DNA of 64,000 nucleotides, from the sequence record MK327937.1. The stretch is one strand, 5' to 3'. The notes under the pieces were generated by a model. That model ran no database searches and was not told where the DNA came from. It saw only the letters and a program-made list of their open reading frames with translations. This DNA is from Escherichia phage vB_EcoM_G10400. Positions 3,417 through 8,992 of the stretch are shown piece after piece (positions within the stretch are counted from its first letter, which is position 1; the number at the start of each line of letters is the position of its first letter). Made by a program: the position numbers and the translations under genes.

Positions 3417-3605
3417 GTTGTTTTCTGTATCAGTAGTTGATAGTTGTATAGTACCATGGAAGAACAGGGATGTAAACAGTTTTGTGAAAAAATTTTTAAA
3501 AAGTTTTAGGGAATTCTAGGGTCAGGAGGGGCAATTAAAAGATAGGATAATATATTATAAAGGGTAGAAACTAAATGATGCCTAGAGAGGCCCGGAAAGG
3601 CCTAG

Positions 3606-3641
3606 ATACCAAAAAGCCCCAACCTTTTGGTCGGGGCTAAG
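3606..3641 (-). terminator. intrinsic terminator hairpin, copy A of a 36-bp repeat
   Basis: ataccaaaaagccccaaccttttggtcggggctaag: on minus strand a GC stem (gcccc/ggggc) followed by a T-run; 35/36 identical to 4165-4200. Confidence 0.6.
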
Positions 3642-3645
3642 AATG

Positions 3646-4119
3646 TTATTTGATTTGTTTAGCAGACCAAATGCGGTCTTTAATAATTTTTTGGATGTCT
3701 TCAACATACTCAAGAGAGTGAGCATGTGGGTTATCTTTGAAACTATAAGCACGAGCTAGCTTTTGGCCTTCAGTTTTGATTACTAAAAGCTCTTTAAGGA
3801 TAGCTTCATATTTAGAGATAATTCCTTTAACAATATTTTTTTCTTGTGCAGCTTTAGGATCTGCTTTAGGAGCAGGTTTACCTGAAGCCTTTGCAAAAGC
3901 AGCGCCAGTAGCAACTAAACTTTTCCAGGCCATACTAACTGCATTTCCCGTAAATCCTTCCGCTTTCATGTCGCGTGCGAACTGGAATCGCGATTCATCA
4001 GAAGCATCTTTATAAGAATATTTACCCGCTGCAATGGCTGCTTTTGCGACAGCTTGAATTTCGGTGCTAGATGCTTCATTTAACACCGCTTCATTTAAAA
4101 ATTGAGTATATGATTTCAT
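3646..4119 (-). CDS. candidate capsid-targeted internal protein (IP-like; N-terminal CTS-like MKSYTQFLNEA with LxE cleavage motifs)
   Basis: 157-aa ORF whose N-terminus resembles the T4 internal-protein capsid-targeting sequence (MKTYQEF-like) with two LNE/A putative gp21 sites; own TATAAATA late promoter on minus strand at 4160-4167; flanked by 36-bp terminator repeats. Confidence 0.5.
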   Translation of the reverse strand: MKSYTQFLNEAVLNEASSTEIQAVAKAAIAAGKYSYKDASDESRFQFARDMKAEGFTGNAVSMAWKSLVATGAAFAKASGKPAPKADPKAAQEKNIVKGIISKYEAILKELLVIKTEGQKLARAYSFKDNPHAHSLEYVEDIQKIIKDRIWSAKQIK

Positions 4120-4159
4120 CTTATTTCCTGTTTTAATTTGTAGATATTTAATATACTAA

Positions 4160-4167
4160 TATTTATA
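4160..4167 (-). promoter_or_regulatory. T4-type late promoter (TATAAATA) for ORF 3646-4119
   Basis: Plus strand tatttata = TATAAATA on minus strand, ~40 nt upstream of the ATG at 4119. Confidence 0.5.
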
Positions 4168-4200
4168 CCAAAAAGCCCCAACCTTTCGGTCGGGGCTAAG
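4165..4200 (-). terminator. intrinsic terminator hairpin, copy B of the 36-bp repeat (end of tRNA/stable-RNA transcript)
   Basis: ataccaaaaagccccaacctttcggtcggggctaag; hairpin plus T-run on minus strand. Confidence 0.6.
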
Positions 4201-4510
4201 CCTTGCGGCAACCTTGTCGGGGTTCCACCTGCTAAGGCAAGTGTTTGTACGAAACGCCGGGATTCGAACCCGGTTATTAAGCAGTTGACGCTACTCAATA
4301 TTTTTAAAAGGCCATATCTCGACCATATCCGAACGTTCCGTCAAAAACACTACTCGGCTTACGGCAAAGATATTTCCTCGAATCGATAATTCGGTGCGCC
4401 GTTTCTGCTGTGATGTAAGAGGGCATCAATAAACGCAAAGATTATTAACGCAATTCCTTACTCAGGGAACATCAGTCCGACGACTTGCCGGTAGCGACCC
4501 GGCTTCTTGT
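4201..4510 (-). ncRNA. tRNA-like stable RNA(s), by position equivalent to T4 species 1/2 RNAs (rnaC/rnaD); boundaries approximate
   Basis: ~310 nt with no credible ORF between tRNA-Arg and the terminator; contains a T-arm-like element (rc of gggattcgaacccgg) but no complete cloverleaf. Confidence 0.35.
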
Positions 4511-4511
4511 C

Positions 4512-4587
4512 TGGTCGAGGCAGTAGGGATCGAACCTACGACCCAGGACTTAGAAGGTCCTTGCTCTTCCTTCTGAGCTATGCCCCG
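4512..4587 (-). tRNA. tRNA-Arg (anticodon UCU), CCA encoded
   Basis: Minus-strand CGGGGCATAGCTCAG...CCTTCTAAGTCC...GGTTCGATCCCTACTGCCTCGACCA; 7-bp acceptor stem, T-loop, anticodon loop CTTCTAA. Confidence 0.85.
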
Positions 4588-4590
4588 TAA

Positions 4591-5256
4591 TTAAAATTTC
4601 ATTTTTCGACCTTTAAACCATCCTTCTGGAATTGGGTCAGTTTTCTTAATACGTTTAGAAACTTTTTCATCTAATGAATGAATCCACATCATGCCAAATT
4701 GGGAATTCTTTTCACCTTGTTGGTGTTTATTTCTGGCGTGAGATTCTTTCATTTTATTAATAGTTTCAGGAGTATGGGTCTTACCCAAGAAAGATTTAGT
4801 ATTTAAAAATTTCTCTCTATACTTAGGATTATCCCAAAGCTGTTTAAACCTTTCTGAACCCATTTTACGATATTTTTCTTTAAGGTCTGGGTCGTTCTCA
4901 AATCTGGTTTTAAAAGCGGCAGCTCCTTTTAAGGAAGCTTCTTTCTTTTTATCCAAATATTCTTTAGTGTTTAAATGGTCCCAACCACCTTCACCACCTA
5001 ATTTCAAATTATAAACATCAGAGCGCTTTAAAAACTCTTCAGTCACAATATTCTTTTCTGACTCAAACATAGAGGTTTTATCGTCAAAGAACTCTAATAT
5101 TTCTTTAGAAAAATTTTCTATACCATACTTATCTTGGGCTCTTTTTAATAATTTACCAGAACCCATATATCCATCATCTAAATTTTCGGTAGAATGAGCG
5201 CCTATATAGATTTTATTATTAATTTTATTTGTTATTTTATAAATGTAATGGAACAT
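4591..5256 (-). CDS. segB: GIY-YIG homing endonuclease (SegB-like) inside the tRNA cluster
   Basis: 221-aa ORF, N-terminus MFHYIYKITNKINNKIYIGAHS...GYMGSG (GIY-YIG motif); position between tRNA-Ile and tRNA-Arg as in T4. Confidence 0.8.
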   Translation of the reverse strand: MFHYIYKITNKINNKIYIGAHSTENLDDGYMGSGKLLKRAQDKYGIENFSKEILEFFDDKTSMFESEKNIVTEEFLKRSDVYNLKLGGEGGWDHLNTKEYLDKKKEASLKGAAAFKTRFENDPDLKEKYRKMGSERFKQLWDNPKYREKFLNTKSFLGKTHTPETINKMKESHARNKHQQGEKNSQFGMMWIHSLDEKVSKRIKKTDPIPEGWFKGRKMKF

Positions 5257-5297
5257 AAATATCTCCTATTTCTAAGAGTATTTATGTTCTCAAAATA

Positions 5298-5369
5298 TGG
5301 CCCTGGGTGGAATTGAACCACCATCTGGCGATTATGAGTCGCTTGCTTGAACCTTCCAGCTACAGGGCC
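5298..5369 (-). tRNA. tRNA with CAU anticodon (Ile, lysidine type as in T4, or Met)
   Basis: Minus-strand GGCCCTGTAGCTGG...GCGACTCATAATCGCC...GGTGGTTCAATTCCACCCAGGGCCA; anticodon loop CTCATAA; coordinates +/-2. Confidence 0.75.
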
Positions 5370-5375
5370 TTGATA

Positions 5376-5448
5376 TGCTGATTGACGGAATCGAACCGCC
5401 GACGTCCTCATTACAAGTGAGGTGCTCTACCTACTGAGCTAAATCAGC
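5376..5448 (-). tRNA. tRNA-Thr (anticodon UGU)
   Basis: Minus-strand GCTGATTTAGCTCAGTAGGTAGAGCACCTCACTTGTAATGAGG...GGTTCGATTCCGTCAATCAGCA. Confidence 0.85.
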
Positions 5449-5455
5449 GAAATTA

Positions 5456-5542
5456 CGGAGGCGATAGGATTTGAACCTATGAGTCGCCGGAGCGACTGCC
5501 GGTTTTCAAGACCGGTGCATTAAACCACTCTGCCACGCCTCC
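5456..5542 (-). tRNA. tRNA-Ser (anticodon UGA), long variable arm
   Basis: Minus-strand GGAGGCGTGGCAGAGTGG...GGTCTTGAAAACC...GGTTCAAATCCTATCGCCTCCG; abuts tRNA-Pro like the T4 Pro-Ser dimeric precursor. Confidence 0.85.
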
Positions 5543-5544
5543 AG

Positions 5545-5618
5545 TCTCCGCGGCAGGATTTGAACCTACGACATTCTGCTCCCAAAGCAGATGCTCTACC
5601 AAACTGAGCTACACGGAG
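5545..5618 (-). tRNA. tRNA-Pro (anticodon UGG)
   Basis: Minus-strand CTCCGTGTAGCTCAGTTTGGTAGAGCATCTGCTTTGGGAGCAGA...GGTTCAAATCCTGCCGCGGAGA. Confidence 0.85.
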
Positions 5619-5630
5619 TAAATTAAATTT

Positions 5631-5702
<72 letters not shown>

Positions 5703-5708
5703 AAACTT

Positions 5709-5795
5709 TGGTACGAGAAGTGGGACTCGAACCCACAAGGAAATCATTCCGCAGCATTTTAAGTGCTGTGCCTTTACCAATTTGACCATTCTCGC
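5709..5795 (-). tRNA. tRNA-Leu (anticodon UAA), long variable arm, CCA encoded
   Basis: Minus-strand GCGAGAATGGTCAAATTGGTAAAGGCACAGCACTTAAAATGCTG...GGGTTCGAGTCCCACTTCTCGTACCA. Confidence 0.85.
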
Positions 5796-5801
5796 GCTAT
5801 A

Positions 5802-6434
5802 TTATTTATTACGTGAAAAAGACTGTTCTATCAATTCTGGACACTTTCGTTCTATCCATTTTCTAGCTTTTTGTGGGCTTATACCTATTATTTTAGCAGC
5901 TTTACTAACCCATCCAAATTTAGAATAATCGATTTTAACTAATTCTTCGTAAATTTCATCAGTTAAAATCTTTTCATTAATATTTACCAGTAAATGATAT
6001 AATTTATTATCATTAGCAATTTTAATGAATCTTTTATAGTTTCCGCCTTTACTTAAACCTAATGAAGTAATTGCAGATGATATAGTAGCCGAATTTAATA
6101 GTGCGTTTAAAATTTCTTCATCACTAACATTATAACGCTTTTTATTATTTTTAATATTTTTACCAGCAAAAGTATCAGTTTGCGAATGGCAATTTGGACA
6201 TAATAATCTTAAATTTGATTTAAGATGATTTTTGTTATTTCCATCAATATGGTCTAATTGCAGAACAATATGCTTATTTTGCCATTTTGAAATTTTACAA
6301 ATTGCACACTCATATGGAAAAATATTTTCTTTTATTATTTTGTCTTTCAGCTTTCCTGTACTAAAATTTGGATGTTTTCCTTCAAAAATTTCAGCTAATT
6401 TAGTATCCATAATATGATTCCCAATTATTAACAA
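5802..6434 (-). CDS. HNH homing endonuclease-like protein, directly upstream of the tRNA cluster
   Basis: 210-aa ORF with HNH motif region LQLDHIDGNNKNHLKSNLRLLCPNCHSQTD and paired CxxC residues; stop codon 6 nt from the tRNA-Leu 5' end. Confidence 0.7.
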   Translation of the reverse strand: MLIIGNHIMDTKLAEIFEGKHPNFSTGKLKDKIIKENIFPYECAICKISKWQNKHIVLQLDHIDGNNKNHLKSNLRLLCPNCHSQTDTFAGKNIKNNKKRYNVSDEEILNALLNSATISSAITSLGLSKGGNYKRFIKIANDNKLYHLLVNINEKILTDEIYEELVKIDYSKFGWVSKAAKIIGISPQKARKWIERKCPELIEQSFSRNK

Positions 6435-6520
6435 AGGCTCTCAAACAAGAACCCTTGATGATAGAGGGTATTAATCAGTGCGGTATGAGTTAATAATAAC
6501 AAATAATTCTTAAAGCATAT

Positions 6521-6808
6521 TTACCATTTATGATAATACATATTTACGATGCATTCAAGGCCCAAAGGATTCCTGAAAATATCATATTCAAGAGGACCTT
6601 TTTCTGTTTCAATAAAGAAATCAAAATTTACTGTATTAAATTTACGGTCTTCCTTCACTAATTTAACTTGGGAAGATGAACGGTCAACATAAACCTTTTC
6701 AACTTCAAAACACGTTAAAACGCCATAATCATCAATCAAGGCTTTAGCCGCGTCTTGATCATATTTATATCCATTTTCAATGGACGATACTTTTGCATAA
6801 AGAATCAT
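6521..6808 (-). CDS. hypothetical protein (probable ATG start at 6808; the track start at 6814 is GTG)
   Basis: ~95-aa ORF beginning MILYAKVSSIENG; its first 7 codons are duplicated as a gene-start fragment at 7241-7261. Confidence 0.5.
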   Translation of the reverse strand: MILYAKVSSIENGYKYDQDAAKALIDDYGVLTCFEVEKVYVDRSSSQVKLVKEDRKFNTVNFDFFIETEKGPLEYDIFRNPLGLECIVNMYYHKW

Positions 6809-6810
6809 TA

Positions 6811-7191
6811 TCACACTCCGTAGTCTATCTTGACCAATCTACCTTTGTAGTAGCCAAAGTTCTTTGGAAAGGCATCATACTCAAAGAAATCACGGTCAAG
6901 CGTTCTGCATTCATCACCATCAACATCATTATAGAGCTTTTGCAAATCAGATTTAAAAAGCTCCTTATCCTCAACTGGCTCTGCTTTGTGCATCACAACC
7001 ATGAGACCAAATCTGTTTGAGTATGCTATTGGGCATAGGTATTTGTTATCATACCCCTTCCACTGACCTTCTGTAAGATTGCTGAGCATACCCTGCACGA
7101 AGTGTTTCCATGTCTTGGGGATAGGGAACTTAATAGCATACTTATGTGTTAGTAGTACCCATCTGGTTCCACCCGATTTAATTAATTTCAT
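6811..7191 (-). CDS. hypothetical protein
   Basis: 126-aa ORF in a co-oriented array; 4-bp overlap with the downstream gene. Confidence 0.5.
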   Translation of the reverse strand: MKLIKSGGTRWVLLTHKYAIKFPIPKTWKHFVQGMLSNLTEGQWKGYDNKYLCPIAYSNRFGLMVVMHKAEPVEDKELFKSDLQKLYNDVDGDECRTLDRDFFEYDAFPKNFGYYKGRLVKIDYGV

Positions 7192-7265
7192 AGTCTCAGC
7201 TACCTCAATATTAATTTAAGCAATATCATTCCTGTAAGGTAGTACTTTAGCATAAAGAATCATTG

Positions 7266-7676
7266 TCAGCCTCTATCAACGATAGCATGAGTATGGGCAT
7301 TTACGATTTGCCACCAGTCGAAACGATTGAAACCATAATCTGGTTTATTTTCATTTTCTTTAATGATATCACGCAGCTTATCTTCTGTTTCAGCATACGC
7401 AATTAAATCATCATATCCACCACAAGGGTAATAATTATCACCTGCGAATAAAAGAAAATTTACCTTAGATGGATTTACATAATAATGGTCTTTAGGATAT
7501 TTAGTTCCTCTCCAATCAGTTACTTCAACATAACGGTAAGAAAATCCATTTTTACTTTCAATCCAACTCCACGCTTCAAAAGGAGTATTAAAAACTTTAT
7601 CAGGTATTAAATTACCTTCAAAATGAGAAGGATTTGCATAATCCCCAGCATAAACATAATATTCGTTAATACTCAT
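7266..7676 (-). CDS. hypothetical protein
   Basis: 136-aa ORF; start is adjacent to the upstream gene's stop (7677). Confidence 0.5.
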   Translation of the reverse strand: MSINEYYVYAGDYANPSHFEGNLIPDKVFNTPFEAWSWIESKNGFSYRYVEVTDWRGTKYPKDHYYVNPSKVNFLLFAGDNYYPCGGYDDLIAYAETEDKLRDIIKENENKPDYGFNRFDWWQIVNAHTHAIVDRG

Positions 7677-7862
7677 TTATTCACCTTTAGAAATTTTATC
7701 CATAACGATAGCAATTAAACCAATTAAAAATGCTACTACAAGTGAAAACGCATTTTCTGCTGTAGTTAATAATCCGCATATAAATCCAACAAACATTGAA
7801 AAACTAAAAGCAGAAGCAGAAATTGCAATAGCAACATTTCGAATTAATTCACAGCGTTTCAT
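7677..7862 (-). CDS. hypothetical small membrane protein
   Basis: 61-aa ORF, largely hydrophobic (FSFSMFVGFICGLLT...LVVAFLIGLIAIV); early-promoter cassette upstream at 7892-7921. Confidence 0.45.
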   Translation of the reverse strand: MKRCELIRNVAIAISASAFSFSMFVGFICGLLTTAENAFSLVVAFLIGLIAIVMDKISKGE

Positions 7863-7938
7863 TTTATTCTCCTCAGTAGTTGATAGGGTAATAGTATCAC
7901 AACTAAAACCCTATGTAAACAACTTTGTGAAAAATTTA

Positions 7939-8223
7939 TTACAAAAGATTTTTAGCAATAATTTTAAGCTGAGCTACTGAAATATGCTTGGCTTTAAACA
8001 AAGCAGTTTCTTCAGCAGGGGAGATAATGATTGTAGCACCATCTTTCTTAGCGGACCATCCATCACCCAGGTAAACAGTACCTTTAACTTCTTCGCCATC
8101 AACCAGGCTAATCATCGGTTTACCTTCACGTCCTTTGTTTGCTTTAATAACTTCAGAAGTAAGGGTCGCTTCAGTCAAAGTAGAAGCGTTAGTCGTTGAA
8201 GTGAATTCTTGATAAGTTTTCAT
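7939..8223 (-). CDS. ipI: internal protein I-like capsid-targeted protein
   Basis: 94-aa ORF starting MKTYQEF (T4 internal-protein capsid-targeting sequence) with an LTE/A candidate gp21 cleavage site; located next to 57B as ipI is in T4. Confidence 0.65.
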   Translation of the reverse strand: MKTYQEFTSTTNASTLTEATLTSEVIKANKGREGKPMISLVDGEEVKGTVYLGDGWSAKKDGATIIISPAEETALFKAKHISVAQLKIIAKNLL

Positions 8224-8295
8224 TTTATTTTCCTAATTAATTTTGATGAGGTAATAGTATCACTACCTCATCAGCATGTAAACAACTTTGTGAAA

Positions 8296-8992
<697 letters not shown>

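Follow-up and report, generated by a model that had tools for sequence, protein, structure and literature searches.

SegB of phage T4 is a proven homing endonuclease, which recognizes a 27-bp site with the T-psi-C motif of a transfer RNA (tRNA) and drives the inheritance of its tRNA region in crosses of T4 with T2L, and its homing alters the tRNA set of the recipient phage (Brok-Volchanskaya et al. 2008, PMC2330249). The T4 endonucleases MobA-MobE, whose genes are free-standing, patchily distributed among T-even phages and expressed from middle or late promoters of their own, combine an HNH domain with a C-terminal region that presumably binds DNA (PMC2988022). HNH genes also occur in the tRNA arrays of mycobacteriophages and other phages, where they have been proposed to generate diversity in the tRNA repertoire (Morgado and Vicente 2019, PMC6409571). 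We analysed a stretch of 64,000 nucleotides (nt) from Escherichia phage vB_EcoM_G10400 (record MK327937.1), referred to as the window, which represents 64 kb of a roughly 168-kb Tequatrovirus (T4-like) genome and carries an HNH endonuclease gene at the head of its tRNA cluster, where T4 has tRNA-Gln. Our results make it likely that a free-standing HNH homing-endonuclease gene overwrote tRNA-Gln in this T4-type cluster.

Like segB in T4, the HNH gene is a free-standing endonuclease gene of the same tRNA cluster that is flanked by tRNA sequence and polymorphic among T-even relatives; SegB is a direct precedent for the homing proposed here. Unlike the GIY-YIG enzyme SegB, the encoded protein belongs to the HNH family, and its gene occupies the tRNA-Gln slot at the head of the cluster, inside the remains of a tRNA gene. 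It resembles the Mob endonucleases in its free-standing position, its patchy occurrence and its domain layout. T4 has neither a copy of this gene nor a Mob gene at the locus. Among named sequences, T5 hegA/F-TflIV comes closest, with 34.7% of residues identical across 84% of the query. It stems from another phage family and, with about one third of its residues identical, is not an ortholog. F-TflIV is reportedly an HNH site-specific endonuclease, a finding attributed to Akulenko and colleagues in 2004. It has been treated as a classic HNH enzyme (PMC5714182), and the SegB study lists it with the rare examples of homing endonuclease genes located in a phage tRNA cluster (PMC2330249). For the HNH genes of mycobacteriophages and other phages the evidence is one of association (PMC6409571), whereas here empty and occupied alleles can be compared in three lineages, and the overwritten tRNA can thus be named.

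The canonical T4 cluster comprises tRNA-Gln, -Leu, -Gly, -Pro, -Ser, -Thr, -Ile and -Arg, and all of these except tRNA-Gln are kept in the window. ARAGORN found seven tRNAs in the whole window, all on the minus strand and in the order Leu, Gly, Pro, Ser, Thr, Ile(CAU) and, beyond segB, Arg. A permissive Rfam search of positions 3500-7800 recovered the identical seven and gave no further tRNA-like or intron-like match, be it upstream of tRNA-Leu or elsewhere in this span. In the T4 reference the gene order is the same, with tRNA-Gln directly abutting tRNA-Leu and no open reading frame (ORF) between trna.2 and tRNA-Gln. A preliminary description of the locus, made from the sequence alone, had stated that the tRNAs follow the T4 order without tRNA-Gln, that tRNA-Gln precedes tRNA-Leu in T4 and that no tRNA lies upstream of tRNA-Leu here. 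Both programs and the T4 comparison bear this out, although the Arg, Ile(CAU) and Pro alleles are divergent.

The HNH gene (5802-6410, minus strand; 609 nt, encoding 202 amino acids plus stop) is a precise replacement of tRNA-Gln. In comparison with T4, T2, G4507, RB18 and PaulHMueller, homology is unbroken from the stop codon of trna.2 across a conserved leader of 94 nt and up to nucleotide 7 of tRNA-Gln, where it ends, leaving the 5' acceptor-strand remnant TGGGAAT (6417-6423, minus strand); some HNH-carrying phages retain 9 nt (TGGGAATTA). Homology resumes exactly at the first base of tRNA-Leu. In between, about 62-64 nt of the tRNA-Gln interior have been exchanged for a cassette of ~620 nt, little more than the ORF itself. 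The HNH stop codon TAA (5804-5802) is followed by the 6-nt spacer TATAGC (5796-5801, minus strand) and then by tRNA-Leu, which starts at 5795. The last three nucleotides of this spacer, AGC, equal the last three of the T4 tRNA-Gln gene, but this 3' remnant is only suggestive because some HNH-carrying phages have AGA instead.

The replacement or deletion of tRNA-Gln in association with an endonuclease, which the preliminary description had put forward as a possibility, is therefore what the alignment to T4 reveals, with the HNH gene in the place of the tRNA and 7-9 nt left of it. Its ORF at 5802-6434, ending 6 nt from tRNA-Leu, is correct as regards the frame, the stop and the gap, but not the start: position 6434 is merely the first in-frame TTG, and the most likely start is the ATG at 6410-6408 (202 amino acids, MDTKLAEIF...), since every homolog starts at this codon and the annotation of relatives places the start there too. 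An assembly artefact was considered and ruled out by the presence of the same junction in 63 independent records.

The 202-residue protein matches PHROG 14736, 'HNH endonuclease', over its full length (E = 5e-124) and is 100% identical to a 42-member cluster in a large protein search. Its HNH motif reads C35xxC38 ... DH54IDGN ... N66LRLLC71PNC74H75. In an alignment of 31 homologs, the catalytic and metal-binding residues typical of the HNH class (H54, N66 and H75) and the zinc-finger cysteines flanking the core (C35, C38, C71 and C74) are all present and invariant. Judged by these motifs, the N-terminal domain is a predicted zinc-finger HNH core and the protein a putative HNH endonuclease. An AlphaFold2 model (mean predicted local distance difference test score 89; predicted template modelling score 0.49, which leaves the relative placement of the domains uncertain) has a helical C-terminal half, which presumably binds DNA. 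With Foldseek, the N-terminal part of this model has HNH nucleases such as Cap5 and McrA as its top matches, and the C-terminal part resembles homeodomain or helix-turn-helix proteins; all of these similarities are weak and none is significant. In NCBIfam, sub-threshold and uninformative matches alone were obtained, to HNH domains from IscB and ZorE.

The HNH cassette is a recurrent minority allele of Tequatrovirus and not its common state. A query of 761 nt, comprising the HNH gene and the junction to tRNA-Leu, was covered to at least 80% in 63 records, with 98.6-99.9% identity among the 60 matches listed. A tblastn search found the protein itself, with an identity of at least 95%, in 63 records, with a single site per record among the matches listed. 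A megablast search recovered the intact T4-type junction of leader, tRNA-Gln and tRNA-Leu in 448 records, and the HNH allele accounts for ~12% of both sets combined. The rarity implied by the preliminary description does not hold, given that 63 deposited T4-like records share a cassette that RefSeq already annotates as 'HNH endonuclease' and to which PHROG 14736 exactly corresponds. By the same description, an HNH gene without tRNA-Gln as the usual condition of T-even phages would have counted against its reading; such an allele does recur, but with 63 against 448 records it is not the common one. We found no account of an HNH-for-tRNA-Gln allele in the literature searched, whose coverage was incomplete, a weak sign that the allele is undescribed.

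Identical junction spacing in all eight HNH-carrying loci examined, with promoter box and tRNA-Leu 722 nt apart, compared with 168 nt in five of five loci with tRNA-Gln, points to a single origin of the cassette in Tequatrovirus. The cassette has a mean pairwise diversity of 0.76%, compared with 2.3% for the 101-nt leader next to it and 6.8% for the tRNA-Gln alleles, in a small sample of eight HNH-carrying loci and with the tRNA-Gln alleles taken from Gln-carrying loci. Flanking single-nucleotide polymorphisms, for example C72 versus T72 in tRNA-Leu, are common to both haplotypes. The HNH-carrying phages differ in their downstream gene set, in which Tyr, Thr, Asn and segB may be present or not: Lutter has the order Arg-Asn-Tyr-Ile-ORF-Ser-Pro-Gly-Leu and lacks segB and tRNA-Thr, and GBLB0003, Pu-Krd-SF5 and BP32 have an additional tRNA-Tyr. 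The ORFs upstream of trna.2 vary among these phages too. Such a pattern fits a recent lateral spread of the cassette in short conversion tracts.

Homologs of the HNH protein at 68% (P0002) and 58% (P0003 and P0004) identity were found in the large protein search on contigs of distant T4-like phages, at the same syntenic spot at the head of a tRNA cluster, after gp2, gp3, gp1, 57A, 57B and trna.x ORFs. On the Marfavirus-like contig P0002, the HNH ORF lies 14 nt downstream of an intact tRNA-Gln and, in comparison with the HNH-less phage PhiKpNIH-6, exactly replaces a tRNA annotated as 'Asn'. The other two contigs resemble Erwinia phage Cronus (Roskildevirus), and here the cassette, whose final six codons consist of recipient sequence, replaces ~220 nt of Cronus sequence including tRNA-Gln. 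A presence/absence polymorphism with conserved flanks is thus seen in Tequatrovirus as well as in the Marfavirus-like and Roskildevirus-like lineages. Close to the HNH cassette, a Roskildevirus-like contig (4823-4824) also precisely lacks the tRNA-His of Cronus (1655-1727), with no ORF in its stead.

An exchange of a tRNA for an endonuclease gene also occurs with the other nuclease family of the cluster. RB18 has a segB-like GIY-YIG ORF (3614-4264 of the examined stretch) exactly in the place held by tRNA-Pro in T2 (3620-3693) and T4. This ORF starts right after the Gly-Pro spacer, and its end, ...TATAAATATT, just before tRNA-Ser, agrees at every position with the late-promoter consensus of T4, TATAAATA.

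Of the 80 IMG/VR loci encoding HNH-domain relatives, which were found by a scan with an alignment (a scan with the single protein confirmed none), 69 carry one tRNA or more no farther than 2 kb away, a raw count taken without a control set. These loci hold 393 tRNAs, 86% of them on the strand of the HNH gene, at a density of ~1.2 tRNAs per kb as estimated from locus lengths, which far exceeds that of a tRNA-rich phage such as T5, with 24 tRNAs in ~122 kb. The most frequent nearest neighbours are tRNA-Leu isoacceptors, with at least 27 of 113 slots against 56 of the 393 tRNAs overall; the HNH gene of the window likewise abuts a tRNA-Leu(UAA). We tentatively consider that the HNH clade of phage tRNA arrays could consist of homing endonucleases that recognize tRNA genes and overwrite them one at a time, a generalization that is possible but on balance doubtful.

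The HNH ORF lies between trna.2 and tRNA-Leu, outside any intron, and to judge from such genomic features would qualify as a free-standing homing endonuclease gene of the Seg/Mob type. Near-identical cassettes in divergent backgrounds at eight loci support its recent lateral spread; the parallel tRNA swaps in two other T4-like lineages and the intact catalytic residues support the replacement of tRNA-Gln by a homing endonuclease gene. We envisage a single ancestral event, in which a cassette of ~620 nt would have replaced the interior of tRNA-Gln, leaving 7-9 nt at the 5' side and perhaps 2-3 nt at the 3' side, and after which recombination or homing would have carried the cassette into many Tequatrovirus backgrounds, that of the window phage included. 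The HNH gene would thereby have taken over the tRNA-Gln slot, with a promoter-like element and leader upstream and GGGA at Shine-Dalgarno distance. The enzyme would nick or cleave HNH-less relatives in or beside the tRNA gene that it replaces, and carriers would be immune because, as we propose, their target site is deleted. Repair from the HNH-carrying genome would then copy the cassette into the recipient and delete the tRNA, after which the phage would rely on the tRNA-Gln(UUG) of its host for CAA codons.

Several observations weigh against this reading. The match of the protein to the Pfam HNH domain (PF01844) reaches 17.3 bits and stays under the gathering cutoff of 21.4, a PDB sequence search returned no significant match, and a Foldseek comparison of the AlphaFold2 model with the PDB gave none at E <= 1e-3. 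Nuclease activity, target site and biased inheritance are all deduced from sequence patterns, as are the promoter, the Shine-Dalgarno role of GGGA and the RNase P cut of an HNH-tRNA-Leu co-transcript. For the genome beyond the 64-kb window, the absence of tRNA-Gln relies on a proxy, the complete genome of T4_ev151. The intact tRNA-Gln next to the Marfavirus-like homolog means that tRNA-Gln cannot be the universal target of the HNH lineage, and it weakens the idea that all members of the lineage have tRNA-Gln as their fixed target. HNH identity between genera (58-76%) parallels that of the neighbouring gp1 and 57B proteins, and the lineage may be an old resident of the locus that was repeatedly lost and regained. 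The tRNA association in IMG/VR, finally, has no control set to be set against.

The locus could also have arisen through two unrelated neutral events, namely the insertion of an HNH gene beside tRNA-Gln and a later spontaneous deletion of the tRNA in which the nuclease had no part. The HNH homolog next to an intact tRNA-Gln in the Marfavirus-like contig looks like the first of these steps, yet there the HNH gene itself replaces another tRNA, so that 'beside' is a replacement as well. tRNA deletions that involve no endonuclease do exist, as the loss of the Cronus tRNA-His in a Roskildevirus-like contig illustrates, and the tRNA region is non-essential for T4 development (PMC2330249). We nevertheless regard two independent events as unlikely, with no Tequatrovirus intermediate carrying both the HNH gene and tRNA-Gln among the matches listed, one and the same junction in all eight HNH-carrying loci examined, and an ORF-for-tRNA swap in each of three lineages.

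Alternatively, the HNH protein may not, or no longer, be a homing enzyme, but a degenerate passenger or a co-opted protein that spreads only by ordinary recombination and hitch-hiking. A co-opted protein might, for instance, exclude competing phages or nick phage DNA. The parallel divergence of the HNH protein and its core neighbours between genera suggests a long residence. The Mob-type HNH enzymes of T4 nick only, and a review table gives the activity of mobA-D as not determined and the target of mobB-D as unknown (PMC2988022). Against this alternative, the ORF is intact and at least 95% identical in 63 records, with invariant catalytic residues and zinc ligands. The cassette is, moreover, less diverse than the DNA directly flanking it, and its patchy presence in otherwise syntenic genomes is the classic pattern of a homing endonuclease, which leaves this alternative quite improbable.

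That tRNA-Gln was merely relocated, for which the 64-kb window leaves room in a genome of roughly 168 kb, or that it was split by an HNH-carrying intron, is close to refuted: the complete genome of T4_ev151, which carries the HNH gene in the same arrangement with segB and seven tRNAs, contains exactly seven tRNAs and no tRNA-Gln, the T4 Gln-Leu junction query matches nothing but the flanks in the HNH-carrying genomes among the matches listed (megablast), and the leftovers of tRNA-Gln, 7-9 nt on the 5' side and 2-3 nt on the 3' side instead of intact exons around the ORF, are far too short to be exons, with no Rfam intron family in 3500-7800. The whole-genome tRNA check that the preliminary description had proposed, carried out on T4_ev151, therefore indicates that tRNA-Gln is lost and not moved. 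CAA makes up 70% of the Gln codons in the long ORFs of the window, and their decoding would now depend on the host tRNA-Gln(UUG).

If a homing endonuclease gene has indeed overwritten tRNA-Gln, its expression would use what the tRNA left behind. Just past the trna.2 stop codon, the leader contains an element that matches the T4 middle-promoter consensus (6493-6519, minus strand), with a MotA-box-like TGCTTTA (6517-6511), a 12-nt spacer and the -10 hexamer TATTAT (6498-6493). This element is shared by all 13 Tequatrovirus loci in the comparison, with the HNH gene and with tRNA-Gln alike, and the record of phage Lutter has a 'promoter' annotated at the equivalent position. This candidate middle promoter would drive both the HNH gene and the tRNA cluster. 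Eight nucleotides upstream of the HNH ATG, the tRNA-Gln remnant provides a GGGA that may act as a weak Shine-Dalgarno sequence. Our scan detected no minus-strand terminator-like site from the promoter down to position 4197, and therefore the HNH ORF and the tRNAs are probably co-transcribed. The sole such site in 4000-8400, a hairpin with a T-run resembling an intrinsic terminator (4174-4197, minus strand), is likely to mark the end of the transcription unit.

RNAfold predicts a leader hairpin, AAGGGUUCUUG-UUUG-AGAGCCUUU (6432-6457, minus strand), in both the minimum-free-energy and the centroid structure, but the fold of the whole leader is no better than that of shuffled sequence (z = -0.85) and the hairpin is descriptive only. 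In the predicted fold (6411-6487, minus strand), the tRNA-Gln remnant GGGAAUCA pairs with an upstream UGAUU...CCC. A T-to-C exchange at position 8 of the remnant, which occurs in some HNH-carrying phages, that of the window included, turns a G-U into a G-C pair in this fold. With the z value of -0.85, we do not claim a hairpin that sequesters the ribosome-binding site, as is known for segB, mobE and I-TevI. In the last HNH codons (5803-5810, minus strand), AATAAATA matches the T4 late-promoter consensus at seven of eight positions; it ends 7 nt before the first base of tRNA-Leu and is conserved in eight of eight HNH-carrying loci. The match may reflect a promoter of the tRNAs that is embedded in the HNH gene, or chance in A/T-rich DNA.

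Six of the eight T4 tRNAs come from dimeric precursors that are cut by RNase P. In the window, RNase P would cut the co-transcript at the first base of tRNA-Leu, as it does with the Gln-Leu dimer in T4; tRNA-Leu would thereby be released, and the 3' end left on the HNH mRNA would be short and unprotected. RNase P reads the tRNA body, and its protein subunit contacts the leader at -8 to -3 and its RNA subunit at -2 and -1 (PMC11143913). Positions -1 to -3 of tRNA-Leu (AGC) are the same as in T4, and at -4 to -8 an A/U-rich mRNA tail replaces the acceptor strand of tRNA-Gln. The statement in the preliminary description that 5' processing of tRNA-Leu must change is thus overstated, since only the upstream leader differs, and RNase P alone should be sufficient for its maturation. 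The same cut would set the 3' end of the HNH mRNA 6 nt past the stop codon, and an mRNA end defined in this way might limit endonuclease expression.

In its tRNA alleles, the cluster of the window is a mosaic. With tRNA-Gln gone, it opens with tRNA-Leu(UAA) (5709-5795; this and all following genes of the cluster are on the minus strand), which is identical to T4 at 86 of 87 positions. Its one difference places a G1:U72 wobble atop the acceptor stem, compared with G1:C72 in T4, and the Leu-Gly spacer has one extra G; the C72/T72 and spacer variants are both found in HNH-carrying and in Gln-carrying phages. Recovered by ARAGORN and Rfam alike, tRNA-Gly (5631-5702) and tRNA-Ser (5455-5543) are identical to T4 and tRNA-Thr (5376-5448) differs by one base, whereas tRNA-Pro (5544-5618) shares 62 of 75 aligned bases and the CAU-anticodon tRNA in the T4 tRNA-Ile slot (5298-5369) 47 of 72. 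The tRNA-Arg(UCU) detected by ARAGORN (4512-4587) is a divergent allele (51 of 69 as in T4). Between the latter two, as in T4, lies segB (4591-5256), a free-standing GIY-YIG homing endonuclease gene by its Pfam match (E = 7.5e-6, above cutoff) and the second endonuclease gene of the cluster. Homologs of the small stable RNAs of T4, rnaD and rnaC, follow (4220-4507, minus strand; 281 of 288 positions identical).

The closest relative overall in the phage collection searched, phage G4507, is 98.8% identical across 93% of the first 25 kb of the window. Its tRNA cluster includes tRNA-Gln but is free of endonuclease genes, and 12 tRNAs are annotated in this stretch of its record, as opposed to seven tRNAs and two endonuclease genes in the window. 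The cluster reads Gln, Leu, Gly, Pro, Ser, Thr, Met(cat), Tyr, Asn, His and Arg, and a tRNA-Lys lies ~500 nt downstream of it, past an ORF. This comparison suggests that the gain of endonuclease genes goes together with tRNA loss. The interval between trna.2 and trna.4 is another small mosaic indel region. In the window, as in G4507 and PaulHMueller, it holds a 126-amino-acid ORF, which resembles 'ORF3, 16.0 kDa' of Lv5cm, and a 136-amino-acid trna.3-like ORF (6811-7191 and 7266-7676), neither of which matches Pfam; T4 has only trna.3 in this interval, and Lv5cm only the type of the 126-amino-acid ORF.

Codon usage or an escape from the anticodon nucleases of the host is the usual explanation for the tRNA repertoires of phages. 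The allele of the window is itself already present in dozens of deposited genomes and a fairly ordinary example of mobile nuclease genes that reshuffle tRNA clusters. It would mean, however, that a selfish endonuclease gene can delete a tRNA which, with CAA as the predominant Gln codon, is apparently still needed, and that the tRNA content of a phage partly reflects the dynamics of mobile elements. HNH-carrying and Gln-carrying coliphages are both in culture, which makes the locus an easy experimental system that could yield the target site of the HNH enzyme and show how an mRNA is processed when a tRNA follows 6 nt after its end. Should the wider proposal of a tRNA-overwriting clade prove true, each cassette would inherit the promoter, the leader and the RNase P-defined boundaries of the tRNA it replaces, and the rapid gain and loss of tRNA genes across many phage families would be driven in large part by homing and not by selection on codon usage.

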